Below the pieces are notes generated by a model, which did not search any database, was not told the DNA's origin, and saw only the letters and a list, made by a program, of their open reading frames with translations. Made by a program: the position numbers and the translations under genes. Below, in pieces: positions 11,733 through 36,801 of a DNA stretch of 64,000 nucleotides. The DNA is from Bdellovibrio sp. Lineage in GTDB: Bacteria; Bdellovibrionota; Bdellovibrionia; Bdellovibrionales; Bdellovibrionaceae. The stretch covers positions 1,760,001 through 1,824,000 of the forward strand of contig JAKFCY010000002.1 of the NCBI GenBank assembly GCA_036676395.1. The letters run 5' to 3'. How positions within the stretch are numbered: the stretch's first letter is position 1; every line of letters begins with the position of its first letter.

Positions 11733-11748
11733 GGGCACTTTTCTTGAA
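11733..11748 (+). promoter_or_regulatory. Possible sigma-54-type promoter for paralog 2
   Basis: GGGCAC-TTTTC-TTGAA resembles TGGCAC-N5-TTGC; repeated GTGTCT sites lie 80-150 bp upstream. Confidence 0.35.
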
Positions 11749-11808
11749 CCCTAGCTCTTCGTTGAGTTTTTATAAACGGTTATTAATTATATAAAACGGA
11801 GAAAACAT

Positions 11809-15315: not shown

Positions 15316-16644
15316 TTAGCGAATAATTTCTAAGGCTTTATTGATGTGTTTATCACCGTCTTCATCAAATGATGTTGATGTGAATTTGAATTTCGACGAC
15401 GTGTTATCTAATTGTAGTACTGTGAAATTATGTTTGCTTGTCGAATCAAGACGACGCGGGTTTTTCTTTCTTTTTGCATTACCTAAGAAAGTAAAACTGT
15501 GCATTGAACTTGAGGTTATTTCGAATGTTTTATAACCTAAGACTTTCGATTCAATTTGCATAATTTCAGAAAAATGTACGTCTCCTGAAACAAAACACAC
15601 TGGCGCATTGATACGTGACAACTGTTGGCAAATTAACGATAAGTCTTTAGCTTGCTCGTATTCGTAAGCGTCTTTCTTAAGATAACCACCGAAAAATTGG
15701 CTGCCGTTCATTAAAAATGCCGGCGAATTATCAGAACTTAGTGTTGAAAATAATTGGTCCTTTTGCGTCTCGCCCCATTGAGTCGTTGCATTTCTGTTAA
15801 AACGACCATCCATTAAACAAAATTTGTAACCGAAAACAGATAGAACTTGTGATACACCCACGCCACGTTTGTATTTGTCGTGTTCTGGATATAACCAAAA
15901 ATTAGAGAATAATTCTAGCGTGAATTGCTTTCCGCCAAAAGATCCATCGAAGCCATTGCCCCCGAAATCGTGGTCATCCCAAATAGCCATGATAGGAACT
16001 AAGTTTTTGTGACGAAACACTCCGATTTTAGTACGCGTTTCAGTGTAACGTTTCCAAAAACCTAATTGTGTTCCATCATTGCCGTTATCTGCATAACATG
16101 TATCTCCGACCAGAAAAACTAAGTCTGGAGTTTGATTTCCCAACGAGGCCCACATTTGCGTGCATGCTGATTTAAAAAAATCATTCATACAGCTTGCAAT
16201 AGCTACTTTTGGATTTTTCTTATTCGTATCTAAGGCCTTAAAATTACGTTCATCGACGATTTTACCCTTAGCATCTAAAACACGAAATCTATAAGTCTGA
16301 CCTAATTGAAGACCAGTCACTTTAAATTTATCTAATTGTAAATCTGAACCCTTCATTCCCGCTGCTGATAAAGCAACTAAGGCAAGCTTTGCATTTTTGC
16401 TATCAACTACTTCAACCGACAGTTCTGCTGTTTTTGGACGTAGTACATTAAAGTAAGCTAAATCTTCAAAAGTTAAACCTTGATGAATTGGATATTTACC
16501 CGTGTAAGCAGGAGTTGTTGCTAATGTAGATACCATATCTGATTCTTGTGCCCAAACTCTTGAGCCCCCGAAAGGTTTAAATGTAAGAATGCCGGCAGAT
16601 ATAATACCTGAGTGTTTTAAAAAATCACGACGTGATTGTGACAT
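15316..16644 (-). CDS. phoD: Tat-exported PhoD-family phosphatase/phosphodiesterase
   Basis: SRRDFLK twin-arginine signal; ASC, GDTCYAD, IWDDHDF and SGDVHFSE motifs; AGGAGG upstream of ATG at 16644. Confidence 0.88.
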   Translation of the reverse strand: MSQSRRDFLKHSGIISAGILTFKPFGGSRVWAQESDMVSTLATTPAYTGKYPIHQGLTFEDLAYFNVLRPKTAELSVEVVDSKNAKLALVALSAAGMKGSDLQLDKFKVTGLQLGQTYRFRVLDAKGKIVDERNFKALDTNKKNPKVAIASCMNDFFKSACTQMWASLGNQTPDLVFLVGDTCYADNGNDGTQLGFWKRYTETRTKIGVFRHKNLVPIMAIWDDHDFGGNGFDGSFGGKQFTLELFSNFWLYPEHDKYKRGVGVSQVLSVFGYKFCLMDGRFNRNATTQWGETQKDQLFSTLSSDNSPAFLMNGSQFFGGYLKKDAYEYEQAKDLSLICQQLSRINAPVCFVSGDVHFSEIMQIESKVLGYKTFEITSSSMHSFTFLGNAKRKKNPRRLDSTSKHNFTVLQLDNTSSKFKFTSTSFDEDGDKHINKALEIIR

Positions 16645-17069
16645 ATGGATGGTCCTCCTAACTAACCTTTCGGAGGGCAAATTCGCCGATTCGACTAGAC
16701 TTATGTGAATCTGGACTATTGCTAGACCACTGGCCTAACTTCTGTAGTGCGATTGTACTAAAACAAAACGGCGCCAAAAATTATTCACCTGAAATTTGGT
16801 GCACAAGTTCGCTTCAGCCTGAAACTTTTTAAAAAGTTATCACCGTGAATTACGCAGCCAATCTGATTCTCATTCTTACGAACGCACCTTTCAGCATGAA
16901 CTTGTTAAAAAAAAATGAAGGATTAAACAAGAAATTCCAATGTGAAACTGGACTTACATCGCCGGTGGATTCTTGACCTTAGATGGTGACCGGGTCTGGA
17001 TCGTTTGCACTGCTAAAGGCTTTGCAAACAAGAAATTAATTTGCTGTCTCAATTTGATCTATGTTGGCT

Positions 17070-17096
17070 TAAGTGAACAGGTTTTTTTGTCGATAA
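17070..17096 (+). promoter_or_regulatory. Sigma-28-like promoter of the surface-protein operon
   Basis: TAAG-N15-GTCGATAA. Confidence 0.55.
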
Positions 17097-17103
17097 ATTA
17101 GTC

Positions 17104-21827: not shown

Positions 21828-21829
21828 TC

Positions 21830-24800: not shown

Positions 24801-25693
24801 CTAATAACGGTGAAGTTTTTGATTTTACACCTGAAACCAATCGCTCAGTGATGAAATTAATCCGCTCTGGTCATCCAAGTGATACCGGCCGCTGGATGCG
24901 TATTTTAGGTGGCGGTAGTGCGGCTACGCCATATCTGAATACTAAAGGTACAAGCTCTTGCGATGGCAAAATGAACACCCAGTGTCGCGGTGATTCTAAT
25001 GGCGCCAACTATATCTTAGGCTACGTCCCTGCTAAAAACATTATCGTTAACGGTAATCCCGAAGTGCGCCCAGCGCAAATCATCACGCAATATAGCCGGG
25101 CGTTTAGTAATATCTGGCAACAAAATTATCTAAAACTTGTAAACACAGACACAGGACAACAAACCCATGTCATGGGAAACAATGATTTAGCTTCTTCTTG
25201 GGATGCCCTCCACTTCCCGAATACCTTCTCGCCAGTGTCGGTGGCCGCGACTAATAATATTGATATATTATATAACGCTGCACGAATCATCTATGATGAA
25301 AACAGAGACGCCTTATTAGTCACACGCTACGGCGGGACTACAATCGGCGCGATTACCTTTAAATCTAACTCCAACGAACAAATCACCGAAGCCGATAAAT
25401 ACTTTAATATCACCGCTGTCGGAAACGGAACCATTTTATCCTTCACGCACAACGTTCAAGAAGGTGCTGATGTATTTTATTATTGTAACAACAGCGGTCG
25501 CCTATATCGTCGTGTAGTTACAGCGGGTTTTTCTTCTGAAATTATTTTACCTTTACCAACCGGCATGACTTGTTTTGGTCGTACACTAGAAAAAACTGTG
25601 GATGATAACAATGGCGTTATCAAACTTTATTTTCCGGCGGCTTTCAAAGGTCAATATATGATGGGAGAATACAGTGTATCGCTTGATCTTTAG
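21830..25693 (+). CDS. Large surface lipoprotein with Ig-like and NHL/beta-propeller-like regions (adhesin-like)
   Basis: Lipobox LLSGC; WIKDKAGN Ig-like motif; propeller-type segments DGRMFVLD, ENNRIRQV and IETIAGN. Confidence 0.65.
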   Translation: MNFKFYLLLFLLLSGCTGSILEEELLSNLSQKGAGGIELDEYIPPGIQFVENTTQGMQQEGFPFLRNNRTFNIKWIIKTCDPVNNPLDAACANLPTGTAENPDPGFYITRLEYTSGTTYVQIPGATSLGGYNDQIQSFSWSIPISLTDEGADFRFRLITRNAKLEDFFATSSSFVMDSSAPVIQTGSLTFNGSADTPLNLKSPGVNIDFNADDNYSPVESFCLKDSAAIPTADHACWLKITSLGLTESKNLQVKNLKRVLGWIGGSFTFYFWIKDKAGNYSRLTNDVGDETIDRRTISYAPGRSVAFLKNIAANDDSVTDNPALDKTVINASAPTVFIKWSYTIDQNTTLDSVEPYKIEYSTDGATFQNITGVSETALLDSEISNNVNVNCQTVPSQDPASIDSCYAWTVPASLHDVPFYIRVHVRDSAGFVYSISTNPFNLSTSTSLDGKVQGLRFAAGLSDSLIGASALNTKFDIDTAYSRTGGKLVVHEDGRMFVLDNSAGIIEISQFDGRARLYIKKSTASVDGYAVDSPDLLAGRTEAVTSNIIKISLDYKGRLIIMENNRIRQVTDERDAQGNLTGVRYVKTIVGCLQTPTSNCYYNNTYKNTAYNAKVPIQYWQNAWINADEFTFPGPVNDWNRQFRHFTALPNGDIYFSVNADYTQVSTALASSANSWRALDFRIYRPDADPTKPGKLLPLKLTGYGVLGEPFKPISELYPQSMGGLTFNPITGNPTTLAMFWDYCPPNTTAQCEYFTSNHNPKTGQSNGTGTHYYSYTMSIKNSLAKGYVDSHTFRYFTSRRGELYAYNTNQFEKVLGKLNTSTNKFERILGGIGYDGYCADGTLAIACPNYIRDAWVTQDNTVFFIDGQQIRMIGADGRVVTLFGRKPADRSGLEATLSTLGRFENFGKWYDTNTSSEKFVLREYDSILLREFSMDKKIETIAGNETTNWGLTWKAAASKPGYFVSTKLANAEMGAWTQAHYIHPPVTVDPNNGEVFDFTPETNRSVMKLIRSGHPSDTGRWMRILGGGSAATPYLNTKGTSSCDGKMNTQCRGDSNGANYILGYVPAKNIIVNGNPEVRPAQIITQYSRAFSNIWQQNYLKLVNTDTGQQTHVMGNNDLASSWDALHFPNTFSPVSVAATNNIDILYNAARIIYDENRDALLVTRYGGTTIGAITFKSNSNEQITEADKYFNITAVGNGTILSFTHNVQEGADVFYYCNNSGRLYRRVVTAGFSSEIILPLPTGMTCFGRTLEKTVDDNNGVIKLYFPAAFKGQYMMGEYSVSLDL

Positions 25694-27884
25694 AGCGCTC
25701 CTGCTCGTATTAATTTTTACTTCTTGTTCTGGCTCAATGGAAGATCTTTCAAGCCTTGAAGCTTCTAAAGGTTTTATCACTGACGGAGAAAACGTCGAAA
25801 CACCTCCAGCGGTAGATCCTGGACTAGAAACTGATCCCGGCAACGCCGGCTCTGTTCCTAGTGATGGCTCTGGTGATGGCTCAAATGTTGGCGATGGCGA
25901 TGGCAACTCATTACCTCCGGCGGCTCCAGTAATTGAAATTTTAAATGTAAATTCAAATTACTTTCGTGGTGGAATAACTCAAGATCTGATTTTTCGTGTC
26001 ACTTCACGTGTGGGTTCTGTAAGTTTAGTTGAATATGTGGTGGCCTGCCCTACACCAACTGCGATTCCTGAATTTAGCATCTTAACTGGCACAACTTCAA
26101 ATACGACCTCAGCTGTCACTATTCAATCAGGCGTGGTCTCAGTCGGTGCCGGTGAAGACACGACAGTTTCCTGGGCAACGCCCAATTTAGCCGGTGTGCG
26201 CTGCCGAAAAATCGATAATTCTTTTGAACAAGCAGATAACCGTTTTAAAATTCGCATCACCAGCGTGGGTGAATCAAATTTATCAAGCTCAGCTGAAAGC
26301 CAGGAATTTCAAATCGATTCTGAAGCGCCGATCTTAGCTGCAAGCGGTCTTACATGCATTGGTGGCAACTGCGTGATCGGTGGAGTTTCTAACTTACAAG
26401 TTTCAGGAGTTTACGATTTAGTAACCCCGGTTGCTGATATCTGTTTAAAAATGGATGATGCCACAACTCCAGAAGTGAATGATGTTTGCTGGACACCACT
26501 TTCAAGCTTAGGCATTACAGTACCAACTCTTACACCGGCAAATTTTGCATTTAATTATTTCTTAGGATTTTTACCCTTCACGATGACCAGCTATTTCTGG
26601 ACAAAAGATTCTGCCGGAAATATTTCTGAGCTGTCTGCAGCCGCTGCCGGCACAGATGCCCGCGACCGTTTAAGCATTACAACCAGCGGCACAACCCGCT
26701 TTGTAAATGATTACGCAACCCTTTCAGCGTCATCAACGGGCCTTTATCATCATGCGGCTACAGGCGAATTTTTAACGATGCCCAGCGCCAGTGTTTCAGG
26801 AATTAAAACTTATCTTGAATCATCAGCTAACTTTAGTTTAACCGTTCCGGCTCATGATAGTTTAAATTTAGCTCCGAATGGTGAAATATTTGCTAAATCC
26901 GAAGACGGCGTTTATCGCTTCGATACAAAAATTTTAGATGATGCTCCAGGTTCTACTATTAAATCTTCGTTCATTCTAAACTCAGGAACTTTCGCAGAAG
27001 GCGCTTTAGGGGCTGCGACTTTTAACCACGTTAAACGTCATGCGATTGATGCTAAAGGTGTTCACTGGTTTTTAGATGACGGAAAAATTTCCTATTTTGA
27101 CCCAAGCTCTGCAACCCCACAACTGACTTATGTTGCTGGTGGTGGTACCAGCGAAACAACAGATGTGATTGATGATCCCAAACAATTAAAAATTAACGAT
27201 AGTTTAAATATCGATGCCTTCGGTGTATTTACAGTATTACCAAATCAATGGGTGGTTTTTTCGTCGGATGATCCAACTCTTCCGGTCAGTGCCGGTGTGC
27301 CTGCAAATCGTTTTAAACTGCGTGTGTACAAGCACAGCAGCGATCCAAGTAAACGTAGCGTATCTACAGTATTTATCAGCGGCAGCACCGCTCAAGGGCC
27401 GACCGATGCTTTAGTTCCGTATTCACGCTTAGCCATTAGCTTTGATCCGATTCGTAATAACATTGCAAATATCACCGGGCGTTTTTGCGCGACCAGTTTT
27501 GTTGATGGAATTACCGATCACTGTGATAGCGCTAAATTAATTAAGTTTTATGTCAGTACGAATACGAGTCCTGAATATATGGGTTCGGTAAATCGTGATA
27601 GCTTTCTATCATTTCAATACGGAAAAGATACACTATTTATGATGGATTCAACAAAAGGCACGATTTCAAAATATGATTCAAGTTCATTTCAAAAAATCGC
27701 CGGTGGTAATAGTCTTGGAACCGATTATTGTACTAACTTTACGCCTTCAACAAGCTGTCAGTTACGTGTGCGTGATTTTAAACCGATCATGAATGGAAAC
27801 GATCAAGTGCTAATCCTGGATCAAAACTATTTACGAATTATTGAACTAGGACAAGTATTTAGTATTTTTTCGGCTGCGCCTTAG
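25674..27884 (+). CDS. Shorter paralogous surface lipoprotein (Ig-like plus propeller-like)
   Basis: Lipobox FTSC, G/D/P-rich linker, and CLK...CW...WTKDSAGN block shared with the preceding gene. Confidence 0.65.
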   Translation: MYRLIFRALLLVLIFTSCSGSMEDLSSLEASKGFITDGENVETPPAVDPGLETDPGNAGSVPSDGSGDGSNVGDGDGNSLPPAAPVIEILNVNSNYFRGGITQDLIFRVTSRVGSVSLVEYVVACPTPTAIPEFSILTGTTSNTTSAVTIQSGVVSVGAGEDTTVSWATPNLAGVRCRKIDNSFEQADNRFKIRITSVGESNLSSSAESQEFQIDSEAPILAASGLTCIGGNCVIGGVSNLQVSGVYDLVTPVADICLKMDDATTPEVNDVCWTPLSSLGITVPTLTPANFAFNYFLGFLPFTMTSYFWTKDSAGNISELSAAAAGTDARDRLSITTSGTTRFVNDYATLSASSTGLYHHAATGEFLTMPSASVSGIKTYLESSANFSLTVPAHDSLNLAPNGEIFAKSEDGVYRFDTKILDDAPGSTIKSSFILNSGTFAEGALGAATFNHVKRHAIDAKGVHWFLDDGKISYFDPSSATPQLTYVAGGGTSETTDVIDDPKQLKINDSLNIDAFGVFTVLPNQWVVFSSDDPTLPVSAGVPANRFKLRVYKHSSDPSKRSVSTVFISGSTAQGPTDALVPYSRLAISFDPIRNNIANITGRFCATSFVDGITDHCDSAKLIKFYVSTNTSPEYMGSVNRDSFLSFQYGKDTLFMMDSTKGTISKYDSSSFQKIAGGNSLGTDYCTNFTPSTSCQLRVRDFKPIMNGNDQVLILDQNYLRIIELGQVFSIFSAAP

Positions 27885-29260
27885 AAATCGAGAAGAAGAC
27901 CAAACTTAGTTAAACCAAATTTACGGCTACTGCCTGCCGCGGTAGCCAATTGCATATCTTGTGTTTCAAAAATCCCGCCGATAACATATTCAGTTTTACC
28001 CACAGTCATTTTATATTTGTAGTTTAAGCCAATTTTCATGTGTGATTTTACAACTTTTGAACCTAACGAGGCCATTTCAAATTTGCCGATAACCGTGCTT
28101 TTCGGATTCATCGTGTAAATAGCGTCGGCGCCGAAAGCAAATTGTGAAGATTGAAACTTCGTGCTTGAAAGATCTTGTTTAACATCGAAGTTTCTATGCC
28201 CCGTCCATACGCCGTAATTAAAGCTCGCTTTGTTGTTTGAATAATAACCAAAGGTCATTTTTGAATCACGAGAACTCACTACCGCCGGGTCTTCACCCGT
28301 CGAAAAACTATTATAAAAACCAAAGCCCACTTTAAAAGAAGTCCAAACAAAGTCTGTTAATCCAGAAAATTCGTAGAAAAAACTTGAAGAAGAATAACTT
28401 GCAGACTCACTGGCTAAAGCCGCTGACGCCATGCCAAAATAAAATGTTTTATCAAAGCCAATCGATAAAGCCGCTGCTTTTTCTTCTAACTTTTTAACAA
28501 AAACTGCAAAGGTTAAAGTTTGGTCTTGGTGTTTAAAACGAAAAGCCCCCGAAGCCTGGCCTTTTAAATTTCCGGTGGGAATCTCAAAAGTGCGGTAACG
28601 CTCACCTTTTCCAGAAACTTCAACGATGTTGGCGCTATTCCAACGGGCTTCTTGTGGAAGCGAAATAGTCACTAAGCCTGGCGACACTGAAAAATTACAG
28701 TTAATCCCCATCGGAAAAGTCACCGCTAAATTTTTAACTTCTTTTAATTTAAAAAGTTCTTCTGGACAGTTGCGGCTCATAAGAACTTTTTGCTCAGGCT
28801 TCCATTCAATTTCATAAAGCACTTGGCCCGCTTCATCTTGAATAAAAGTTTTACCAGCGCCAGTTACAATTCTGATTTCATCAGCCATCACCGGAGTATC
28901 TAATAGATCTTCAGCGATCACAGGTGTTGCCGCAGCTGCAGTTTCGGCTTTTACCGTGCCTGATTGCTCGGGTGGCGCTGCCGTTGTTAAAATGTATTTA
29001 TTCATGAATGAAAAATCTGTTGCCGCAGAGTCGGCACCTTTGGTTCTATATTTTTGAGGCAAGATAAAACCTTTTTTTAGAACAATTTCAACCCCGTAAA
29101 CAATATTTACCTGATCAAGTTTTACAAAGCCTTCTTTGGCAGAAAATAATACGGGATTGGCCGTTGAATTATTTTTGATATCTTTTATTGTGACTTCAGC
29201 TAAAGCAAATGACGAAAAGACCAATGAAAATAGAAGAGTTTTGATTTGACCTAGATGCAT
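27881..29260 (-). CDS. Exported protein with probable C-terminal outer-membrane beta-barrel
   Basis: Signal peptide; amphipathic strands over the last ~190 aa; terminal LLLDF. Confidence 0.6.
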   Translation of the reverse strand: MHLGQIKTLLFSLVFSSFALAEVTIKDIKNNSTANPVLFSAKEGFVKLDQVNIVYGVEIVLKKGFILPQKYRTKGADSAATDFSFMNKYILTTAAPPEQSGTVKAETAAAATPVIAEDLLDTPVMADEIRIVTGAGKTFIQDEAGQVLYEIEWKPEQKVLMSRNCPEELFKLKEVKNLAVTFPMGINCNFSVSPGLVTISLPQEARWNSANIVEVSGKGERYRTFEIPTGNLKGQASGAFRFKHQDQTLTFAVFVKKLEEKAAALSIGFDKTFYFGMASAALASESASYSSSSFFYEFSGLTDFVWTSFKVGFGFYNSFSTGEDPAVVSSRDSKMTFGYYSNNKASFNYGVWTGHRNFDVKQDLSSTKFQSSQFAFGADAIYTMNPKSTVIGKFEMASLGSKVVKSHMKIGLNYKYKMTVGKTEYVIGGIFETQDMQLATAAGSSRKFGLTKFGLLLDF

Positions 29261-29274
29261 GCCTTAATAGGTTA

Positions 29275-29946
29275 TTAATCTGCGTTATCTAATGCAATGT
29301 TTTTCTTGCTGCCGCGATAAGCGAGTACAAACATCACAACAAGAATAATAAAACTTATAGTAACTAGACCACCACCGGTATCGTGGGGTTGTTCCGAAGC
29401 CGGAGCCCGCTCAGCAATAACAAGCGTACCCTCTGTGGTTTTCTCGTTCGCCATAGCAAGCTGTTGATCTAAAGAGTTCTTCTGAGCTTGGCCTTTGGCA
29501 CTGCTGGTTTCTGCAAATGATTTTTTTGCATGATAAACTTTAACCTGTACCGAAGTGTTGGTTGCAAAGTCTGACACTTGGAACCGGTTTAAAGCTAAGA
29601 CCTCAATCCATGCATTCGAATACCCAATATGTTCATCTAAAGTGGTTTTAAAATCAGACTTTGTTAAAGTCACTAATTGATACGGACAGCGTTCTAATTC
29701 GTGGTTATTTAAAACTTTTTCTTTATGTTCATCTGCACGGGGCAAACTAGAATTAAAATAAACAAATTGTCCTGGTGCAAGCCCGCGCGATACACTGGCA
29801 TCGATTTTTTCAATATCTGCCGTTTTACCACCCAAACGTTTTATCGTTTTACGAATACCAGAAAGTGTATCACCGGGTTTAACGATGTAAACCGCGTTGA
29901 CTGTGATTCCACTTTTAGCAAAAGTTTGGGTTTGGTACTGCTTCAT
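29275..29946 (-). CDS. LysM-like protein with C-terminal membrane anchor
   Basis: YIVKPGDTLSGI; TM LVTISFIILVVMFVLAY followed by RGSKK; ATG overlaps the stop of the MotB-like gene. Confidence 0.65.
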   Translation of the reverse strand: MKQYQTQTFAKSGITVNAVYIVKPGDTLSGIRKTIKRLGGKTADIEKIDASVSRGLAPGQFVYFNSSLPRADEHKEKVLNNHELERCPYQLVTLTKSDFKTTLDEHIGYSNAWIEVLALNRFQVSDFATNTSVQVKVYHAKKSFAETSSAKGQAQKNSLDQQLAMANEKTTEGTLVIAERAPASEQPHDTGGGLVTISFIILVVMFVLAYRGSKKNIALDNAD

Positions 29947-30761
29947 TAGTTAAATTTTTTCAAATTAATTTTTTTAGTTTTAGAACGATTGTCATCGTCA
30001 TCTTTTAATAATATTTTTTCGACTAATTTTTCCTGGCCGTTAACTACAATGAAAAGTGAAACTTCATTCGCTGATTCATCACCGCGGCTATTATACAAAG
30101 AAATATCAAAACTGTATTCACCGTCTTTAGGCGCTGTTGTTTTAAACATTTCAACACCTGGTCCACGATCTGAATCATTTACGAATTCATCAGGATCGGT
30201 ATCAGATAATTTGCGGTTTTTGAAATTAAGTTCTTGGCCTAATGGTGTTGTCACTTTTAAATCGACGTCATGACTTCTATTAGCCCATTTCACAAACACG
30301 ATCACACTTGTTGCATCAGCTGGTATTGCTTTCGTAGAAGCTACACCACGTGCAGCTTCTTGCATTTTGTTTTGAGCTGTTTTTGAAAATTGTGCAATTT
30401 TAACAATGGCTAAATCTTTTGTGCTTAATTCATCTTTAGCTTGTGATAATTGTGAACGTAATTTATTTACATCTGAATTTAATGACGCGATAATTTTTTT
30501 CAGTTCTTCAGTATCTGCATTAGCCACCATTTTATCCATGGCTGAACTTTGTTCAACTGCAGATGACTGAAAACCTTTTTCAGACATTTTTTTAAGTTCT
30601 TTTTCAACAGCATCAGCAACACTTTTATTCTTTAGCGCAAAAGAATATAACATTACGAATAGACCAAACAATAAAGTCATCATATCCGCATAACTGACTA
30701 GCCACTTTTCATCAACGTGGGGAACCCCGTGAGAATCGCTATGACGTTTTTTACGACGCAC
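29946..30761 (-). CDS. MotB-like stator subunit with coiled coil and YfaP/DUF2135-like C-terminal domain
   Basis: WLVSYADMMTLLFGLFVMLY with the conserved Asp; C-terminal W...DVDLKVTTP.G, D...GPGVE, GEY...ISLY; no OmpA-type GHTD/NWELS..RA. Likely GTG start at 30761 after GAGGTG. Confidence 0.8.
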   Translation of the reverse strand: MRRKKRHSDSHGVPHVDEKWLVSYADMMTLLFGLFVMLYSFALKNKSVADAVEKELKKMSEKGFQSSAVEQSSAMDKMVANADTEELKKIIASLNSDVNKLRSQLSQAKDELSTKDLAIVKIAQFSKTAQNKMQEAARGVASTKAIPADATSVIVFVKWANRSHDVDLKVTTPLGQELNFKNRKLSDTDPDEFVNDSDRGPGVEMFKTTAPKDGEYSFDISLYNSRGDESANEVSLFIVVNGQEKLVEKILLKDDDDNRSKTKKINLKKFN

Positions 30762-31614
30762 TCGCCACCTCATCTTTTGGTGGTTCCTCCACCGGAATTG
30801 CTGGCTGTTCATAGCTGGCAATAAATTTACCTAATGATTTTCTAACGGCCATTTGTTCATTGATATCTAAACCAAAAGTAATGACCTCAGTTAAGCTTTC
30901 AAATGACACGCCTTCTTTTTCTTTTACGATCGCTTCAGCGATAACTTCACGGATATGATTATCATCTTCAGCTAATTGAAACGCATAATCGGCCAAGGGT
31001 AAGAACACGAAATTGGCTAAACCGATTCCCCAGAAAGTGGCTGTTAAGGCCACCGCCATGGCTTTACCCATCGCCTCTGGGCCGCCCGATCCTAAATTAG
31101 TCATCATCTGAATCATACCCGTTGAAGCTCCGAGAAGACCTAAAGCTGGTGGATATTTAGAAATATTAAGTAAAACTTTTGCGTACGCTTGGTAGCGGAT
31201 TTTAAAATTTTGTACGCGCATGGCCATAGCTTCATAAACTTCATCCGGCTTCATGTGTGGTTCACGCAATAATAGTAATCCGTCTAATACGAACATGTGG
31301 TTGTATTTACGTTTTTTCGCATCAAAAAATGGGGATTTATTCTGATACAACGATGTTAATAACTCATAAACCACTTCGATATCGTATGAACTCTTTTTTA
31401 AGAAGAATCCGTAGATTAAGAAGTCGATAAGTTCTGAAACCATCTTAAACGAGTACGATAAAAGCGTAATCGCGATGGTTCCGCCGAACACTAAGGCTAA
31501 GGCATGCGTATTCGCAAAAATCGATAGATCCGCAAATCCACTGAAAACCCCGACATACATCACAAAGCCGAGAGCAATAAGTCCAAACCATATTGATCTA
31601 ATTTTCATAACCAT
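30751..31614 (-). CDS. MotA/PomA-family stator subunit (atypical)
   Basis: ALALVFGGT, PPALGLLGASTGMIQMM, GKAMAVALTATFWGIGLANFVFLPLA. Confidence 0.88.
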   Translation of the reverse strand: MVMKIRSIWFGLIALGFVMYVGVFSGFADLSIFANTHALALVFGGTIAITLLSYSFKMVSELIDFLIYGFFLKKSSYDIEVVYELLTSLYQNKSPFFDAKKRKYNHMFVLDGLLLLREPHMKPDEVYEAMAMRVQNFKIRYQAYAKVLLNISKYPPALGLLGASTGMIQMMTNLGSGGPEAMGKAMAVALTATFWGIGLANFVFLPLADYAFQLAEDDNHIREVIAEAIVKEKEGVSFESLTEVITFGLDINEQMAVRKSLGKFIASYEQPAIPVEEPPKDEVASAS

Positions 31615-31620
31615 TCCCCT

Positions 31621-33339
31621 TTAATTAGCCACACTAATAATTTCGCGCGTGCGATGTGTTAAACGAACCACATCCCCATTCATATTCAGCAAACGAATTT
31701 GCTGAAACGCGCTTTGATTGTTTAAGTTCGTAAATTTAAATTCTGAAGTAAAATTGAAATACTGAGAGGCACTTTCAGCCAATTCTTTAGTAACAACGAT
31801 GTTTTGTTCAAGCACCGTATGTAAGTGTGCCGCTTTTTGCACTTCTGAAAAAGGTTTACCAAAATATAACATTTCACCTGTTTGTGGGCTCATGTGAATA
31901 ACAGCACTACCTTTAGCCGCACACAGCATAAATGATTTAAACACGCCACTATCATTCATCTTATGTTTTAGAAAACTTTCAATATCTAAGAGTGAGTTCA
32001 ATCCGCGCAGATTGATTTGCATATTTTCATCAAACAACCCCCACGCCAAAGTCATTGAACCGTTTAACTGTGAAATCACAACGCCATTTGTTTTTGCGAT
32101 AATTTCTTCTAAGTTTTTACGAATAAGGTCGTACTCTTTGACCACATCAGAACCCAGAGCAGATTCATCAACTAATAATTCTAATTGCACGGCTAAAACT
32201 TCAGATTCACTTAAATCAAGATTTACAGCTTTAAAGTTCAATTTATCAGCTAAATTTACCCGGCCAAATTTTTGAATAACATTTCCCAGCTCAGAACTAC
32301 GTTCAACAGTCTCAAATGTACTGCATACATGTTGTGATAATAGATCGAATTCATCTTTTAAGGTGCTGTCAGTGATTGCCGGTTTTATTTCACGGCGCTG
32401 AGCATAATCTTCAAGCTGTTGCATCAAGTGTTTTACTTTTTGAGAAGTAAATAAACCCATGAATGCGAGCAGCACCACCATAGCTGAAAATAGTACGCCC
32501 ACAGCTTTAGAGAAATTAGATTTAATTAAGTAAACCGACTGCCATAAATAACCTTCAGAAGCTTCGCTTAGAACGTAGAAGCCGCCAGCACTACGAATAA
32601 CTGTGGCGTAAAAATTTTCGGTCGTAAGTTTATCAAAATACTTATTTTGCAAAACGGCCTTATTACTTTTATTTAACTCGACCAGCACTGGATGCTCGTT
32701 GATATCACCTAAAAATTCATTACCGCTTTGGGCGATCATGCCACCAACTGATTCAAACATAAACTGGTTATAGCCTGTTAAGGGTGTAAACAGAGCCTGA
32801 AAACGCTGTAAATCTGCATAAACTACGACAACAGAATTATGATCTGCTAAGCGGCTAACCACAGCTAAAAGCTGGGTTTTTTTATCATTTGCTGTCAACT
32901 TTTGAATAAAGTATTTATTAAACTGTAAACGCGAAAAATCTAAAGGATTAGCCCCTACTGTTTCTTTGATAAAATCACTAGATAAACCGCGGTTTGCGGT
33001 AAAATCTGTATTGGTAAAATTTGCCGAAACTTTATATTTGCCGTCTTTAAAAGTAAATAGATCTACAGCCACAAGGTCAGCATCCAAACCTTCTGAACCA
33101 AAACTTTCTCTTTTAACAGAAAGTTTTTTGACTATTTCTAATGAAGCCAATTGGTAATATTTAATTTTAGCTTCGATCTCATTAACTTTTGTAGCCGTTG
33201 TTGTATGTAACTGCGTCAGTGCTTGAGTCACAATGTAATCTTTTAAAATATCCTCGGTGCGTGACCAAGCGATTTTTGTAAAAACACCCACAATAAGAGC
33301 TAGGCCGATTAAGTATTTAAACATAAGCTTCATGGTCAT
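31621..33339 (-). CDS. TM-Cache-TM-HAMP receptor with degenerate class III nucleotide cyclase domain
   Basis: Two TMs flank a ~250-aa loop; HAMP-like KDEFDLL; EIIAKTNGVVISQLNGSMTLAWG matches the cyclase G.IDKFIGDA.MA.WG pattern without the Asp residues. Confidence 0.6.
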   Translation of the reverse strand: MTMKLMFKYLIGLALIVGVFTKIAWSRTEDILKDYIVTQALTQLHTTTATKVNEIEAKIKYYQLASLEIVKKLSVKRESFGSEGLDADLVAVDLFTFKDGKYKVSANFTNTDFTANRGLSSDFIKETVGANPLDFSRLQFNKYFIQKLTANDKKTQLLAVVSRLADHNSVVVVYADLQRFQALFTPLTGYNQFMFESVGGMIAQSGNEFLGDINEHPVLVELNKSNKAVLQNKYFDKLTTENFYATVIRSAGGFYVLSEASEGYLWQSVYLIKSNFSKAVGVLFSAMVVLLAFMGLFTSQKVKHLMQQLEDYAQRREIKPAITDSTLKDEFDLLSQHVCSTFETVERSSELGNVIQKFGRVNLADKLNFKAVNLDLSESEVLAVQLELLVDESALGSDVVKEYDLIRKNLEEIIAKTNGVVISQLNGSMTLAWGLFDENMQINLRGLNSLLDIESFLKHKMNDSGVFKSFMLCAAKGSAVIHMSPQTGEMLYFGKPFSEVQKAAHLHTVLEQNIVVTKELAESASQYFNFTSEFKFTNLNNQSAFQQIRLLNMNGDVVRLTHRTREIISVAN

Positions 33340-35030
33340 AAAGCCTCCATAACATAGCCCACATTAATGTAGTGCCCTGAGTGTGAAACGGTATTTACGC
33401 TGGAGCTGTTTGAGCCTTTAAATTCATGCTCGCTATTTTTAAAAAGATAGCCAATTTCAAAACGATCATTACTGCCTGCACGGTTAAATAAAGCATTAAT
33501 TGAATAATCAATGCTTTCGCCTTTTTCTAAGGTTTGATCCTGAGACTTAGTCAGTTGATAAACTGGTTTTAAATAGCCCACGCGAAAATCGACCGCATAC
33601 TGGTCTAAATAATTATATTGCAAGCTTGCATTCAAAAAAACATTCAATAAATGCTGCGAATAGATATTTAACTGTGTCGCCGAAAGCGGATCAGTTGTTG
33701 CCTGAATAAGGCGATCTAACCCAAGGCCCCCATTTAATTTAATAATCTGTGGGTATGAATTATAGTATGAGTACTCTTGGCCAAAACGAAAGTCATAGAT
33801 CAATTCACCCTTATTCGGTAAATTAAAATAACCCAGATTTAATTTGTAATATTGATTTAAGCTATCGATAATGCCCGGATCATTTTTCGTATAAGAAAAA
33901 TTTAAAACCTGGCCACTGATATCTACGATCGAAGACTGTGACGGAAAATCTGATTTATAATCAATGCTTGAAGAAATTAAATTAAAATTGTGGTAATACT
34001 GGCGACTTTTGGCCTTTATAGTGTCACGGTAAAACTTGTTTTCTGCTACCAGCGTGCGATCACCTGCTTTAATCGAAAAATCAACACAAGCATCCGTCGA
34101 ATAAAGTTTGGCTTTAATATGGGATTTTACGCAAAAAGTGTATTCTCCACCCGCCCAAGATGACGGAACTCTAAAAGTTGTTGCATAAAAAGACGGAGCG
34201 CTAAATTTTTGCATTTCTAATGGATCAACGTTTTTTTGATACACGACAATAGCATATCTTTTAACATCCATCACTTTGTGCCAGCTGATTTCACGAACAA
34301 ACGTATTTGCCGGAGTAATTACGCGCGGACTAAATTTATCCTGTTCATAAACTTCTAGCGGCATAAGATTGGCCGCGATAATTTTATTTTGCGCATTGCG
34401 AGCCACAACTTTTAACATATAAGAACCAGACTCTAAGCCTTTAATTTCAGTTTCAGCGGTTTTAAGATCTGTTAAAACCTGCTCTGGTGCTTCACTGAAT
34501 ATTTTGCTTTTTTTGAAATCGCGTGTAGAGCTTAGTGGGTTTATCTCAAAACGTTCAGTCTGATAAACAGAAAGCACATAAGAAGCTGCATCACTGATCG
34601 GAGTCCATTGTAAGAAGGCTTTATTCTGGTTTTGTAAATCTTTGCTAATACCAGCCACATGGCCATCAAGATTTACTAAAGTGATTTTATAATCTTCAAT
34701 TACGAATGAACTAAATTCGCTCCAGTTAGACTCTGTCTCATCAGCAAAAGAAATTTTAAAACGAAAACGATAACGCCCTTTAGCAAGATATTCTTGCCAT
34801 TGAGGCGTAGCCTGTTCAAAACTCATTACAGCCCCACGAGCTGGATGGATTTCGACGATATATTTTTTGGCGTTAGGTTCAGCCTTAAAATTTAAAGCCA
34901 CCTTACGCTTCATCTCAACATCAACTCTTTCAGTCATATACTTAGAATTCGCCAGCGCCGGCAGCGATACAAATAGTCCTAAAATCAAAATAAATGTTTT
35001 TGCACTAATTTTTGATTTCAACATTTTCAA
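33336..35030 (-). CDS. Exported FN3/Ig-repeat protein with probable C-terminal beta-barrel
   Basis: Signal peptide; FN3-type segments GRYRFR...SNWSE, LQWTPI..A.SY.L and GLESGSY..KV.A; C-terminal strands ending GHYINVGY. Confidence 0.62.
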   Translation of the reverse strand: MKMLKSKISAKTFILILGLFVSLPALANSKYMTERVDVEMKRKVALNFKAEPNAKKYIVEIHPARGAVMSFEQATPQWQEYLAKGRYRFRFKISFADETESNWSEFSSFVIEDYKITLVNLDGHVAGISKDLQNQNKAFLQWTPISDAASYVLSVYQTERFEINPLSSTRDFKKSKIFSEAPEQVLTDLKTAETEIKGLESGSYMLKVVARNAQNKIIAANLMPLEVYEQDKFSPRVITPANTFVREISWHKVMDVKRYAIVVYQKNVDPLEMQKFSAPSFYATTFRVPSSWAGGEYTFCVKSHIKAKLYSTDACVDFSIKAGDRTLVAENKFYRDTIKAKSRQYYHNFNLISSSIDYKSDFPSQSSIVDISGQVLNFSYTKNDPGIIDSLNQYYKLNLGYFNLPNKGELIYDFRFGQEYSYYNSYPQIIKLNGGLGLDRLIQATTDPLSATQLNIYSQHLLNVFLNASLQYNYLDQYAVDFRVGYLKPVYQLTKSQDQTLEKGESIDYSINALFNRAGSNDRFEIGYLFKNSEHEFKGSNSSSVNTVSHSGHYINVGYVMEAL

Positions 35031-36801
35031 CCTGCGGCGTGATAATTCCCTCTTTAGTGACGTTGTAATCCGTCGGAGGAATCAGTTTAACAGAGACACC
35101 TTGTTCAATTTGCGCATTCTGACTTGCGGGCAAACGGCCTTTTGAAGAACTATTAGGCTGTAGATTTTGACTTTCAAAGTAATTAGTCAATTTTCTGTCT
35201 TCTACATGAAACTTCACCTGATAGTAATCAGTTGCCAGACCTTTTAGATTTAATTTATCACCTTTATTAAGAATACCTTTTTTAACAACTTTGTTATCTG
35301 TCGCAAGCACTTCAAAGTGATAATCATACAATGATGAAATTGATTTCGGATCAACATTTAAACTGTATTCGCGATCTGTGATAATTTCTTTCTTTTTAGT
35401 TTTTTCATGTTTTGCAAAAGTTAACAGTTGTTTAGGTGAACGTTTCGAAAGTTTAATTTCGTACTCTAAAGTTTTGCCTAAAATCTGCATTTTATTATTA
35501 AACGGCTCAATTTTTACTTTAACCGGCGTTGCCGTATCAATTTTTACATTTAGCTCTTCGCTATCAACGAAAATACTTTCTTTGACTTGTGAAAGTTCGC
35601 CTGATTTAGCTTCTTGTAAATAGATTAAAGTGACTTTGTATTTGCTGACTGGCCATCTCGAATTTTTCTGCCATTGTAAATGCAGTACCGGATCACGGTA
35701 ATAAAACTGTTCAACTTCCGTTGTTTCGTGCCAAGAAACAACATCAGAATCACTTTGGGCAATCGGGGCAAAATAAAATGCACGCGACTCACTATATATA
35801 GAATGATCTTCATTAAGCACGCGCCAGTAATAGAAACCAAATTCAGACGGCTTATAGGCCAGCTGATTCCTGTTGCCAGCAAACATCTCAGCGATCATTT
35901 GATTGTTTTTAAAAATTTGTACTTTAACTTTATCTACATTAGCCGCTTTTGACCATTTTAAGATAAAGTCGTCAGGGTTAATCACATTATTAATAACTTC
36001 TTTGTGCTCTGGATAAATTAAGTTAATTTTAGATTGAAATTCGTTTTTCCAAAAATTAATGGCGCCAGCTTCTAGAACTGCTTCATTTTCTTTAACAACG
36101 GCTTGCCAGAAAAATTGCGTCATTGTCCAGTCTTCTGAAAAGCCACCCGCTTCAAACGGGTAAGTTTTAACAAGTTGTAAATTGTTTTTTTCAGCACCTG
36201 CCCAAAATTCAACCCAGCGATTTTTTACTGTATCATCTGCTAACCATTTAACTTCAAGCTTAGAACCTTGCTCTTTCGCATTCAGAGCAACCCCATTTAA
36301 TTTAAAAATTGAATTTTGATCTGGTGACATCGGACCTTGCATCGCCATTTCACCAAATTGACCTGAGTCATTTTGTTCAAATAGATTTACAGCTGCTGCT
36401 GCCTTTGTTGTTAATGCGACAACAGAGCCTTTGCTGACGTAAAATTCGACTTTATCTGAATTCTTTTTAACGATCACATCGCTATAGGGTAAAATTCTAA
36501 ACTTATGTTTGCCGATCTCTAACACTGTCGATACTTCAAGTGTTTTGATGCTGTCATTAGCCAGAACGATTTGTCCATGCATGGCTAATGTGCCAGATAA
36601 TGATTGCGCTTTTTTAATAAGTACTGGTTCACCATCAGTGATCAAATAACCTACGACTTCTAACGCATGGTTTGTGGCTTGTTTACTTAGGTAAAAATTA
36701 GATAATTGAAAAGCGGCACCGCATACTGATGCAGTGGCCATAAAAATATATAAAAAGCTTTTCACGTTTTTGTAGAAGAACACAAAGGCTTCATCGGACA
36801 A
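35005..36801 (-). CDS. Membrane-anchored FecR-like plus FN3/Ig-repeat protein
   Basis: N-terminal TM; V...DSIKT...S.V...I.P.S.V...GSV pattern resembling FecR; LIYP...F.LKW and GFYYWRV repeats. Confidence 0.6.
   Translation of the reverse strand: MSDEAFVFFYKNVKSFLYIFMATASVCGAAFQLSNFYLSKQATNHALEVVGYLITDGEPVLIKKAQSLSGTLAMHGQIVLANDSIKTLEVSTVLEIGKHKFRILPYSDVIVKKNSDKVEFYVSKGSVVALTTKAAAAVNLFEQNDSGQFGEMAMQGPMSPDQNSIFKLNGVALNAKEQGSKLEVKWLADDTVKNRWVEFWAGAEKNNLQLVKTYPFEAGGFSEDWTMTQFFWQAVVKENEAVLEAGAINFWKNEFQSKINLIYPEHKEVINNVINPDDFILKWSKAANVDKVKVQIFKNNQMIAEMFAGNRNQLAYKPSEFGFYYWRVLNEDHSIYSESRAFYFAPIAQSDSDVVSWHETTEVEQFYYRDPVLHLQWQKNSRWPVSKYKVTLIYLQEAKSGELSQVKESIFVDSEELNVKIDTATPVKVKIEPFNNKMQILGKTLEYEIKLSKRSPKQLLTFAKHEKTKKKEIITDREYSLNVDPKSISSLYDYHFEVLATDNKVVKKGILNKGDKLNLKGLATDYYQVKFHVEDRKLTNYFESQNLQPNSSSKGRLPASQNAQIEQGVSVKLIPPTDYNVTKEGIITPQVENVEIKN

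Follow-up and report, generated by a model that had tools for sequence, protein, structure and literature searches.

A MotA/MotB-type pair linked to an outer-membrane barrel and lipoproteins in Pseudobdellovibrio: a possible trans-envelope energiser

ExbBD-TonB and TolQR-TolA-Pal are ion-driven motors of the 5:2 family that act with a long periplasm-spanning protein, the globular tip of which binds an outer-membrane protein. In Salmonella, the SiiAB proteins form a non-flagellar MotA/MotB-like proton channel that is encoded with, and needed by, a large surface adhesin (SPI-4 type I secretion). The flagellar-type pairs MotAB and PomAB have been placed in the "FIT" group, of which an OmpA-homologous peptidoglycan-binding domain in the B subunit is a hallmark according to excerpts of Puente-Lelievre et al. 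(2025; PMC12505986), and several stator pairs are used by Bdellovibrio species according to part of another study (PMC11870529).

Here, we describe a MotA/MotB-type pair, MotA* and MotB*, in a window of 64,000 nucleotides, which is the whole stretch of DNA that was analysed. An earlier note had presented the pair as part of a self-contained, undescribed seven-gene unit. No description of a MotA*-MotB*-barrel system was found in print, in line with that note, and the results suggest an undescribed machine that conveys energy across the envelope, from inner membrane to cell surface, in predatory Pseudobdellovibrio.

The MotA*-MotB*-barrel triad

Seven tightly packed open reading frames are located on the minus strand at positions 27881-36801, in the order g1, g2, g3, MotA*, MotB*, g6 and g7. 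The first gene, g1 (35005-36801, 598 aa), overlaps g2 (33336-35030, 564 aa) by 26 nt, which in turn overlaps g3 (31621-33339, 572 aa) by 4 nt, while a gap of 6 nt separates g3 from MotA* (30751-31614, 287 aa). MotA* overlaps MotB* (29946-30821, 291 aa) by 71 nt, an overlap that shrinks to 23 nt with ATG 30773, the likely true start of MotB*, which has GGAGG about 11 nt upstream. A TAATG stop/start overlap couples g6 (29275-29946, 223 aa) translationally to MotB*, and 14 nt separate g6 from g7 (27881-29260, 459 aa). The co-oriented, overlapping or abutting arrangement is real: three other genomes show the same collinear series of seven genes, together with the genes on either side, and in each of the four genomes the flanks consist of syntenic chromosomal genes. 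A synteny comparison proposed in the earlier note recovered the exact order in 4 of the 52 genomes of the genus (Pseudobdellovibrio), whereas a triad of MotA*, MotB* and g7 is conserved across the phylum. As had been noted, the window contains no flagellar, TonB or TolA genes, judged by Pfam scans of its 47 open reading frames.

MotA* was rightly labelled MotA-like (PF01618, 6e-18). It is a 4-TM channel subunit of the MotA/PomA type and has no long cytoplasmic tail. Its cytoplasmic loop (~90 aa) is full-size and of the flagellar-stator type, which suggests a cytoplasmic partner. It is also the most conserved of the seven proteins (89.5-99% identity at three orthologous loci). The equivalents of the TM prolines P173 and P222 are retained in the alignment, whereas the positions of the E. 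coli FliG contacts R90/E98 tentatively fall within a deletion and are unconserved. The NCBIfam models for flagellar stators align over its full length, but far under the cut-off (87.6 vs 237 bits). In the phylogeny, which the earlier note had proposed as a check on the non-flagellar character of the motor, MotA* is split from ExbB/TolQ-type proteins (100/99), four of which are encoded by separate genes in the same genome, and is placed inside the flagellar-type MotA/PomA stator lineage, but as a clade of its own (99/97) with B subunits of a different build. A separate MotA of the E. coli type is encoded in the same genome along with a plug-bearing MotB partner, and so is FliG.

For MotB*, the label MotB-like holds for the plug and the transmembrane segment (PF13677, MotB_plug, 3e-14) but not for the C-terminus, where no OmpA domain was matched in the Pfam scan. 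The channel aspartate, D46, is invariant across 50 homologues. MotB_plug was matched by 48 of them and coiled-coil families by many, but OmpA is missing from the 25 families that most of these 50 proteins match, as compared to 14 of 15 B subunits with OmpA in neighbouring stator clades. The MotB* of the window contains instead a coiled-coil linker of about 116 aa and a C-terminal beta-sandwich head at residues ~165-291. Among the 45 of 50 family sequences that were measured, linkers range over 106-259 aa, with a median of 169, and heads over 111-125 aa. A search with the head alone retrieved 233 cluster representatives, mostly proteins of 270-470 aa with the domain at the C-terminus, and 101 of the best 150 head relatives have a MotB N-terminus. 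Relatives other than MotB bear PPC, P_proprotein and, weakly, DUF2135, which are beta-sandwich families. The head could itself bind peptidoglycan, which would make MotB* an ordinary though long anchor.

The product of g7 consists of a signal peptide, a small beta domain, a disordered linker (73-126), a periplasmic beta-sandwich (128-255) with C165/C188 and G217-K-G-E220 invariant in the family alignment, and a barrel (269-458). The AF2 model (pLDDT 77.3 overall, about 90 in the barrel) has 10 strands, and it matched OpcA, Pla and OmpT in Foldseek; in the structure comparison (VIA) the scores were highest for OpcA (Z 20.3), pOmpT (19.3) and the Legionella Dot/Icm porin I (18.6). The model thus confirms the predicted assignment of g7 as an outer-membrane beta-barrel, the second in the earlier description, here with 10 strands and a periplasmic sandwich. 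Secretion through it is unlikely, since a barrel of this size is too narrow for folded proteins.

The conserved unit is this triad, the linkage of which is kept across the phylum, and the idea of a non-flagellar ion motor tied to outer-membrane barrels is borne out to that extent. The MotB* head was identified in 25 of 401 Bdellovibrionota genomes, and a g7-type barrel gene lies at most 8 kb from MotB* in 19 of the 25 loci, as compared to none of 55 ordinary MotB loci. Among the six loci without g7 in 8 kb, two (L084, L097) have the barrel ~10 kb away and three (L080, L082, L094) are interrupted by a contig end. In genomes matched in both the MotB* and the barrel search, the pair is found within 10 kb on the same contig in 11 of 12 cases. 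The gene set is constant and the gene order varies from locus to locus; the lengths of the MotB* linker and g7 do not covary (rho -0.15, n=21). One genome (G218) contains as many as three copies, and 26 genomes of a large sister genus (g17) yielded no match to the head. This patchy distribution indicates that the function is accessory.

Accessory lipoproteins and lineage-specific genes

The seven genes are not the self-contained unit that they were taken for. A convergent four-gene operon at 17104-27884, missed in the earlier note, is also part of the system: homologues of all four genes sit within the MotA*B* operon at paralogous loci. The first gene, p868 (17104-19710, plus strand, as are the other three), encodes a lipoprotein (lipobox LLTSGC) containing Cys-rich repeats and, at the C-terminus, an Lcl_C/DUF1566-like lectin domain, and its homologues are placed inside the paralogous operons (1e-70 to 5e-84). 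It is followed by p710 (19695-21827), a secreted paralogue of p868 with an Lcl_C-like C-terminus (Lcl_C 7e-4; homologues at 3e-72 to 2e-85). The large lipoprotein dn_1287 (21830-25693, lipobox LLLSGC) has weak NHL/Ig-like matches (TEN_NHL 0.0018), and its homologues of 1174-1181 aa are encoded immediately after MotB* at paralogous loci (3e-82). The last gene, dn_736 (25674-27884, lipobox IFTSC), the stop of which overlaps that of g7 by 4 nt, encodes a lipoprotein of an NHL-like family with homologues of 660-697 aa after the barrel gene (6e-31). An IS200-type transposase gene is located 2 kb from this operon. Accessory sets differ between loci: some consist of a pair of lectin-like and a pair of NHL-like proteins, others of an S8 subtilase plus two further proteins. 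Lipoproteins account for 43 of 51 accessory proteins by regular expression and 49 of 51 by eye, as compared to none of g1-g7.

Outside the triad, g1, g2, g3 and g6 occur in a small subclade only. A search of 5.8 billion proteins gave only 11-14 relatives for each of the first three (E<=0.001-0.01), and no relatives of g6 were found at other MotA*B* loci. For g1 (12 homologues, most annotated at 576-578 aa; likely start M21, 36741), the nearest Atlas clusters, which are language-model look-alikes, are FecR(+fn3/Ig_J) at 0.94. The FecR-FN3 label agrees with these clusters, but recognition (1858) is below the 2300 mark and no match was obtained in Pfam or PDB; going by the look-alikes, g1 may consist of an N-terminal membrane anchor, a FecR-like beta domain and Ig/FN3-like repeats. 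The g2 protein (14 homologues, all at least 60% identical) has a signal peptide and three W..Y-type Ig/FN3-like repeats, as read by eye, and no family or PDB match. Its aromatic-rich C-terminal ~235 aa are possibly an outer-membrane barrel; an hhalign comparison with the g7 barrel was not significant (E 0.15-0.21).

A putative two-TM receptor with a periplasmic domain (~30-270), a HAMP-like segment and a C-terminal cyclase-like domain is encoded by g3 (11 homologues, in 4 of 52 genomes of the genus; AF2 model poor, pLDDT 46.6). Its description as Cache-HAMP-cyclase is backed by Atlas look-alikes (HAMP+Guanylate_cyc(+dCache), 0.97-0.98) but by nothing in Pfam or NCBIfam, and PF00211 fails to detect the cyclase domain. 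Aligned by hhalign to cyclases encoded in the same genome, g3 gave a weak match (E 0.034, probability 1.5%), yet in the expected register: residues 381-527 pair with 394-547 of the cyclase, with E387 facing Asp1 and G427 facing Asp2. If this alignment is right, g3 would be a class III cyclase-like protein without the second metal Asp, a pseudo-cyclase. In g6, four aligned orthologues share a putative LysM-like N-terminus (18-64), a second conserved domain (77-142) and a C-terminal TM; three matches on 18-64 agree with the LysM label but all are weak (Pfam 0.041; MltD LysM region NF008050, 0.0021; PDB 4uz2, E 0.44).

Proposed working and alternative explanations

We tentatively favor an ion-driven trans-envelope energiser, in which the MotB* stalk would act on the barrel and the lipoproteins, a reading to which we give a little less than an even chance. 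MotA* and MotB* would form an inner-membrane channel and motor of the MotA5B2 type, a stoichiometry that we infer from homology and that fits with the retained channel Asp and two TM prolines. The coiled-coil stalk, long enough to span the periplasm, and its beta-sandwich head would replace the peptidoglycan-binding OmpA domain, and the head might dock on the periplasmic sandwich of g7. Ion flow would then produce movement or force at the outer membrane, following the logic of ExbBD-TonB, TolQRA and GldLM if energy flows in that direction, and the co-encoded large lipoproteins (two lectin-like and two NHL-like in the window, elsewhere an S8 subtilase with two companions) may thereby be exposed, moved, released or activated at the cell surface. 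In a predator, a role in binding or degrading prey is plausible for them. In the subclade, g1 (FecR-like, inner-membrane anchored), g2 (secreted, Ig-like, possibly a barrel) and g3, the receptor next to MotA*, could add an input module, and the LysM-like membrane protein g6 may provide the wall anchor that MotB* misses. The system might serve sensing, adhesin display or gliding, as had been inferred in the earlier note.

Alternatively, the stator-like unit could be a sensor that reports envelope load or prey/surface contact through MotA* to cytoplasmic signalling proteins, with the barrel and lipoproteins as the outside antenna. In several variants, the immediate neighbour of MotA* encodes a signalling protein (g3 in the window; a histidine kinase in L030, there with HAMP-HisKA-HATPase, and in L073; FHA proteins in L034 and L036), HAMP-GGDEF genes adjoin MotB in a neighbouring stator clade, g1 resembles FecR-type trans-envelope signal relays in Atlas, and the stator protein MotC of Pseudomonas aeruginosa reportedly binds the diguanylate cyclase SadC in surface sensing. 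However, the signalling neighbour changes between variants and is missing at many loci, such as the paralogous locus of the same genome and the S8-type loci, while the barrel and lipoproteins recur, and g3, which according to the weak alignment would lack its second catalytic Asp, would in that case not produce a second messenger directly. We consider a sensor unlikely. Lower still is the probability of Tol-Pal-like envelope maintenance, in which the stalk would tether or remodel the outer membrane via the barrel, for example for outer-membrane stability or constriction in attack or division, and the lipoproteins would not be surface cargo but would serve as structural partners in the periplasm. 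The outline of MotB* does resemble a TolR-plus-TolA fusion (TM with Asp, long helix, globular head), its partners are outer-membrane proteins and lipoproteins, and MreB and LpoB genes adjoin one variant (L030). Yet envelope systems with a housekeeping role are found in nearly every member of a clade, unlike MotA*B* with its 25 of 401 genomes and multiple copies; S8 protease and lectin-like domains are found among the partners, and the four ExbB/TolQ-type genes are already in the genome.

The position of MotA* within the MotA/PomA lineage, the retained plug and the full-length NCBIfam alignments would also fit a specialised flagellar stator that drives or brakes a sheathed flagellum, with a scaffold of outer-membrane barrels taking the place of peptidoglycan as its anchor. 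The genome is flagellated, and Bdellovibrio species run several stator pairs (PMC11870529, in part). We nevertheless hold this to be improbable, given the missing OmpA domain, the tentatively unconserved FliG contacts, NCBIfam scores far under the equivalog cut-offs, no flagellar gene in the window, the steady link to protease and lectin lipoproteins and the patchy, multi-copy distribution. An anti-phage or conflict system of the Zorya kind, with a membrane motor that senses envelope breach, is very improbable. The distribution and the variable accessory genes would suit it, as would the nearby transposase gene and weak PADLOC matches to ZorB (3.8e-5). But among the seven operon genes, which were those scanned, the ZorB matches are limited to the plug/TM and there is no match to ZorA, the long tail is absent from MotA*, the accessory proteins are all exported lipoproteins or outer-membrane proteins, with no cytoplasmic nucleases or helicases, and the flanks are syntenic.

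Comparison with known systems

Bdellovibrio species are known to glide, and if g17, in the 26 genomes of which the head was not found, corresponds to Bdellovibrio, MotA*B* is unlikely to be a general gliding motor of the phylum. As in ExbBD-TonB and TolQR-TolA-Pal, outer-membrane processes would be energised by a 5:2-family ion motor, but MotA* is clearly apart from ExbB/TolQ-type proteins, MotB* has a plug and the spanning part fused to the B subunit instead of a separate TonB or TolA, and the partner is a 10-strand barrel rather than a 22-strand TonB-dependent transporter or Pal. With SiiAB, the system shares a non-flagellar MotAB-like pair encoded together with a large surface protein, here a putative one; SiiA, however, keeps its peptidoglycan-binding domain and works with T1SS parts (ABC transporter, membrane-fusion protein, TolC-like protein), none of which are present here.

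Likeness is closest in sequence to MotAB/PomAB (excerpts of PMC12505986): the 4-TM A subunit with its ~90 aa cytoplasmic loop and TM prolines, the B subunit with channel Asp and plug, and the adjacent, overlapping genes. The differences are the coiled coil and beta-sandwich head in place of the OmpA-homologous domain, the tentative loss of the FliG-contact charges, the separate clade, and a gene context of outer-membrane barrel and lipoproteins instead of flagellar genes. The motor of the Myxococcus Agl-Glt system, AglRQS, is of the TolQR type and no Glt homologues were found here, but it likewise combines a motor, periplasmic struts, several outer-membrane beta-barrels and an outer-membrane lipoprotein adhesin, CglB, the exposure of which is controlled by the machinery (PMC9946355, in part). 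GldLM/PorLM of type IX secretion and gliding in Bacteroidota has no sequence relation to MotA*B*, with no Pfam match to GldL or GldM; MotA* is MotA-type with four TM, the putative cargo consists of lipoproteins without the T9SS C-terminal domain, and the outer-membrane partner is a small 10-strand barrel as compared to the GldKN ring or the Sov translocon. In logic only, the two are alike: an ion motor, a single-TM B-type subunit with a long periplasmic rod and a beta-sandwich tip, outer-membrane partners, and large surface adhesins or enzymes encoded nearby that are, or here would be, served by the machine (excerpts of PMC13104615; see also PMC8986121).

Gene arrangement and the conserved core

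The ORF listing places all seven genes of the operon on the - strand at window positions 27881-36801, in agreement with an earlier note that had described them as co-oriented and overlapping or abutting. The genes are g1 (35005-36801, 598 aa), g2 (33336-35030, 564 aa), g3 (31621-33339, 572 aa), the stator-type pair MotA* (30751-31614, 287 aa) and MotB* (29946-30821, 291 aa), g6 (29275-29946, 223 aa) and g7 (27881-29260, 459 aa). The overlap between g2 and g3 is 4 nt, and the sequence TAATG is common to the stop of MotB* and the start of g6. An ATG at position 30773 with GGAGG ahead of it is probably the start codon of MotB*, which would give a 23-nt overlap with MotA*.

The proposed synteny check was run: the order of the seven genes is kept in three other genomes, in which both flanks are also collinear with the window, but g3 is present in just 4 of the 52 genomes of the genus. 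MotA* is the most conserved of the seven in these collinear genomes (89.5-99% identity), and the identity of g1, g2, g3 and g6 goes down to 64-70% in the two more distant ones. In a collection of 5.8 billion proteins, 11 relatives were found for g3, 12 for g1 and 14 for g2, the full-length ones being at least 52% identical. The distribution of the seven-gene operon is narrow.

The genome that contains the window carries a second copy of MotA* (45% identity). At this paralogous locus (L013), and at loci from four other genomes of the genus (L014-L017), MotA* and a MotB* with the same C-terminal domain occur as in the window, and a g7-type barrel is also found in L013-L016. The operons in L013-L016 also contain two proteins of ~610 aa and one of ~1180 aa, and those in L015 and L016 additionally contain one protein of 660-697 aa. 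These proteins are homologues (E 6e-31 to 2e-85) of p868, p710, dn_1287 and dn_736, four + strand genes at 17104-27884 that are convergent with the seven-gene operon. Because homologues of the four genes are located inside paralogous MotA*B* operons, the system in the window would comprise about eleven genes (17104-36801). The convergent operons meet without intergenic space, with the stop codons of dn_736 (+) and g7 (-) overlapping by 4 nt (27881-27884) and no terminator-like site between the two genes, and in a scan of positions 16500-36499 promoter and terminator sites were no more numerous than in shuffles. The conserved core is the triad MotA*-MotB*-g7. The idea that the seven genes are a self-contained machine is supported in part only: g1, g2, g3 and g6 are not shared by loci L013-L017, and the convergent four-gene operon had been missed.

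Two further observations concern the surroundings. An IS200-type Y1 transposase domain (1.4e-6) is encoded at 14705-15304 (+), ~2 kb upstream of the convergent lipoprotein operon, and a single ORF of 3718 aa at 42333-53489 (-), with no Pfam match at E≤0.001, may encode a giant surface protein.

Lineage of the stator pair

The assignment of the MotA-like and MotB-like genes was confirmed by Pfam, with matches of MotA* to PF01618 (6e-18) and of MotB* to MotB_plug (3e-14), and no other supported families were obtained by Pfam for the seven genes. Residue D46 of MotB* is invariant across 50 sequences. MotB_plug is matched by 48 of 50 MotB* family members. Matches to coiled-coil families are frequent in these members, the 25 families matched most often do not include OmpA, and MotB* itself has no OmpA match at E≤10. 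In neighbouring stator clades, plug and OmpA are both present in 14 of 15 B subunits, and the loss of OmpA and gain of a stalk and head therefore mark the MotA* clade.

We inferred a maximum-likelihood tree from 35 A subunits, including the seven of the same genome, E. coli MotA, ExbB and TolQ, and relatives. The MotA-type rows are split from the ExbB/TolQ-type rows at 100/99. In this phylogeny, which had been suggested as a check, MotA* falls in the MotA lineage, but as a separate clade of its own (12 rows, support 99/97) with a sister group that is not fixed (81/98), and it lies apart from ExbB and TolQ of E. coli as well as from four ExbB/TolQ-type paralogues of the same genome. Both TM prolines are kept in MotA*. 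The positions of E. coli R90 and E98, which contact FliG, tentatively correspond to a non-conserved, partly deleted stretch in the MotA* rows, in a region that is hard to align with MAFFT. Altogether, the comparisons show a flagellar-lineage channel pair with the Asp and plug intact, in which the wall-binding domain is replaced by a stalk and head.

FliG is also encoded in the genome, as is an E. coli-like MotA that has a plug-bearing MotB of its own; this fits the statement in the accessible part of PMC11870529 that epibiotic Pseudobdellovibrionaceae retain only motAB3. A second, weak FliG_C-like match (9.6e-6, 259-aa frame) was observed in this genome outside the window (G000:C2:483758-484066), far from any MotA gene. 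The stator clade adjoining MotA* has a MotB with plug and OmpA, located beside HAMP-GGDEF cyclases (5e-42, 2e-44; L019:11333-12490, L022:11284-12432), and at two other loci of this clade, L018 and L021, a protein of 653-655 aa, a small outer-membrane barrel and a TPR protein adjoin the stator genes. Among the neighbours of this clade, Pfam identified HAMP-GGDEF, TPR and the small barrel, and no FliG. From its gene content, it looks like another non-flagellar stator-pair context.

Stalk, head, barrel and the associated proteins

The linker between the TM segment and the head of MotB* is 106-259 aa long (median 169), and the head 111-125 aa. Residues 63-164 of MotB* were strongly helical-amphipathic according to a home-made beta-moment script that failed its barrel positive control; if helical, the linker would span ~16-38 nm. 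A head-only search recovered 233 cluster representatives among 1.84 billion, and 101 of the best 150 head relatives have a MotB N-terminus. In the non-MotB relatives, PPC, P_proprotein, weak DUF2135 and C-type lectin domains were identified, suggesting a beta-sandwich fold.

AF2 models were made for g3 and g7. The g7 model, based on an alignment of 21 sequences (pLDDT 77.3), begins with a signal peptide and a small beta domain; a disordered linker follows, and then a beta-sandwich (128-255) and a 10-strand barrel (269-458, pLDDT ~90). In structural comparisons, it is closest to 10-strand barrels, namely OpcA (Z 20.3; rmsd 2.4 over 185 residues), pOmpT (19.3) and Legionella Dot/Icm porin I (18.6). 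The C-terminal residue is F, as in most homologues, and in the sandwich of the g7 family a Cys pair is invariant and a G-K-G-E motif is present. With a signal peptide, a closed antiparallel barrel and a C-terminal aromatic residue, g7 is, as modelled, an outer-membrane beta-barrel. The earlier note had postulated two such barrels; g7 is borne out by its model, and g2 is a possible barrel with putative Ig-like repeats. The latter has a signal peptide and no family or profile match, its profile search against PDB sequences gave chance-level rows, and hhalign was not significant for g2 against the g7 family or for g1 against g2.

Of 301 genomes of the order, 32 have a member of the g7 family. In the phylum, 25 of 401 genomes have the MotB* head, representing several families and 17 of 203 genera. 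A g7-type gene and the head are at most 10 kb apart on one contig in 11 of the 12 genomes matched by both searches. We also collected 80 loci with MotB TM/plug patterns, several of which were records fetched earlier, so that the counts are not independent of the earlier ones; 25 of them, all Bdellovibrionota records, carry the MotB* head. MotA* adjoins MotB* in 22 of these 25, and a g7-type gene is located within 8 kb in 19 of the 25 MotB* loci as compared to 0 of the 55 ordinary-MotB loci, where the genomes are samples and related loci are non-independent. A complex prediction from alignments for g7 (22-459) and the MotB* head (160-291) gave a score of 0.14 (mark 0.32), and the length of the MotB* linker does not correlate with that of g7 (rho -0.15, p 0.51, n=21).

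The neighbours of the triad differ among the 25 MotB* loci. An S8 subtilase (~1100-1170 aa) and/or two companions (~750 aa and ~500 aa) were found in 10 loci, lectin-like (Lcl_C/DUF1566) and/or NHL-like proteins, including the window type, in 6, and a histidine kinase upstream combined with an LpoB-like protein downstream in 3. In two further loci, L034 and L036, a small FHA protein is encoded ahead of MotA. A lipoprotein signal was identified on 43 of 51 large accessory proteins by a crude pattern and on 49 of 51 by eye, versus 0 of 7 for g1-g7. An unusual lipobox-like signal end, F-Q-N-C, is common to the S8 subtilases linked to MotA*B* (L035:1984-5412, L041:2261-5683, L042:13812-17294, L044:9169-12669, L034:4272-7040 and others), and their two companion lipoproteins terminate in a Cys-rich tail with the pattern ...C.E..CP. 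Across the loci, linkage to an outer-membrane barrel with a periplasmic sandwich is constant, and the co-encoded lipoproteins come in variable sets.

Directly upstream of the paralogous MotA*, a 2197-aa protein (L013:10322-16915, -) contains a C-terminal Peptidase_S74 chaperone domain (2e-7), which is typical of trimeric fibre proteins, and a 1978-aa fn3/Big_1/NHL protein is placed similarly in L038. In L030, the triad is preceded, at a distance of a few genes, by MreB (2783-3826, 8e-154) and has an LpoB-like lipoprotein (11679-12272, 6e-42) downstream.

Among the genes outside the core, g3 had been labelled Cache-HAMP-cyclase-like. Atlas, a language-model look-alike search, places it among HAMP+Guanylate_cyc(+dCache) clusters at 0.97-0.98, but g3 has no family match, PF00211 detects four other genes of the same genome and not g3, and hhalign to cyclases of this genome aligns residues 381-527 weakly with the cyclase domain (E 0.034, probability 1.5%). 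In this weak register, Glu387 aligns with the first metal Asp and Gly427 with the second, and g3 is plausibly a pseudo-cyclase. Its AF2 model is poor (pLDDT 46.6), and its profile retrieved chance-level rows only from PDB sequences. A degenerate GGDEF domain was also considered for g3 and is not supported, since hhalign against two HAMP-GGDEF proteins hit the TM/HAMP stretch only (E 0.13). At 53563-54774 (-), 17 kb from g3, the window encodes a protein with cNMP-binding and EAL domains (4e-19, 1e-67), possibly connecting cyclic-nucleotide with c-di-GMP signalling.

The Atlas look-alikes of g1 carry FecR and fn3/Ig_J (0.94, low recognition); Pfam identified no FecR domain (PF04773) in g1, and no profile match was found among PDB sequences. 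No sigma-70/ECF or TonB-dependent receptor family, as would accompany a FecR-type regulator, was detected among the 47 ORFs of the window. For g6, three sub-threshold LysM matches cover residues 18-64, one of them to a PDB LysM at E 0.44. The protein has no signal peptide, and its sole TM segment is at the C-terminus, with R-G-S-K-K after it; according to the positive-inside rule, the LysM-like N-terminus of 195 aa would have to cross the membrane without a leader.

Proposed function and comparison with known motors

We infer that MotA* and MotB* would form a 5:2 assembly, that the MotB* head would dock on g7, and that force or rotation would be passed to the outer membrane to act on lipoproteins. 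Here, g1-g3 would be a lineage-specific input module and g6 a possible wall anchor supplied in trans, a role that the translational coupling of g6 to MotB* fits and the topology of g6 does not obviously fit. Our tentative proposal, in which we place limited confidence, is that the triad is the engine of a new stator-derived envelope-spanning system, in which ion-motive force exposes, moves or releases large surface lipoproteins in predatory bacteria, such as lectin-like adhesins, NHL propellers and S8 proteases. The main rival, which strikes us as unlikely, is that the device is a sensor talking to adjacent signalling proteins, and it is compatible with a role of the triad as an energiser. A general gliding motor was rejected, since the MotB* head was found in none of the 26 genomes sampled from one large sister genus.

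If true, the engine proposal would establish a class of energised surface display or secretion that is new, and it would be the first clear example of a stator from the flagellar lineage with a non-flagellar use. A motor tied to co-encoded lectins, propellers and a subtilase would also provide testable candidates for the way in which prey-contact factors are brought into action at the surface, and genetics and cryo-ET are feasible since a cultured isolate with a closed genome, Pseudobdellovibrio sp. HCB154, has the whole cluster.

The set of 5:2-type ion motors is small (the flagellar stator, ExbBD, TolQR, AglRQS, GldLM and ZorAB), and the triad would extend it by one member whose output architecture is new. 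The picture given in the accessible part of PMC12505986, that the MotA/PomA (“FIT”) lineage serves flagella only, would also be contradicted. We found no description of the module in the literature, including look-ups of terms in PMC11870529 and PMC11656739, which for PMC12505986 applies to that part, and its supplementary table of 379 proteins may list members of the clade.

As in the earlier note, Pfam detected neither TonB nor TolA families in the window, and none of the seven genes is a Zorya effector of the ZorC/D/E kind according to PADLOC. ZorA has a long cytoplasmic tail, whereas MotA* is just 287 aa long and PADLOC on the seven genes gave no ZorA match; the PADLOC matches to ZorB, which has a PG-binding domain, cover residues 34-131 of MotB* only (3.8e-5). 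Unlike ExbBD, TolQR and AglRQS (“GIT”), MotA* is located outside the ExbB/TolQ rows, and MotB* has a plug, which the GIT B subunit lacks. With the flagellar stator (MotAB/PomAB), MotA* shares the MotA/PomA lineage and MotB* the channel Asp and plug, but MotB* has no OmpA-type peptidoglycan-binding domain, one of the four FIT hallmarks in the accessible part of PMC12505986, and MotA*, which aligns over its full length to NCBIfam flagellar stator models, has a best score of 87.6 bits, far below the curated equivalog cut-off of 237. The triad is like GldLM, TonB, Tol and Agl-Glt by its logic. Judged by its sequences, the system is a stator relative by descent and is classed under none of FIT, GldLM, TonB/Tol and Agl-Glt.
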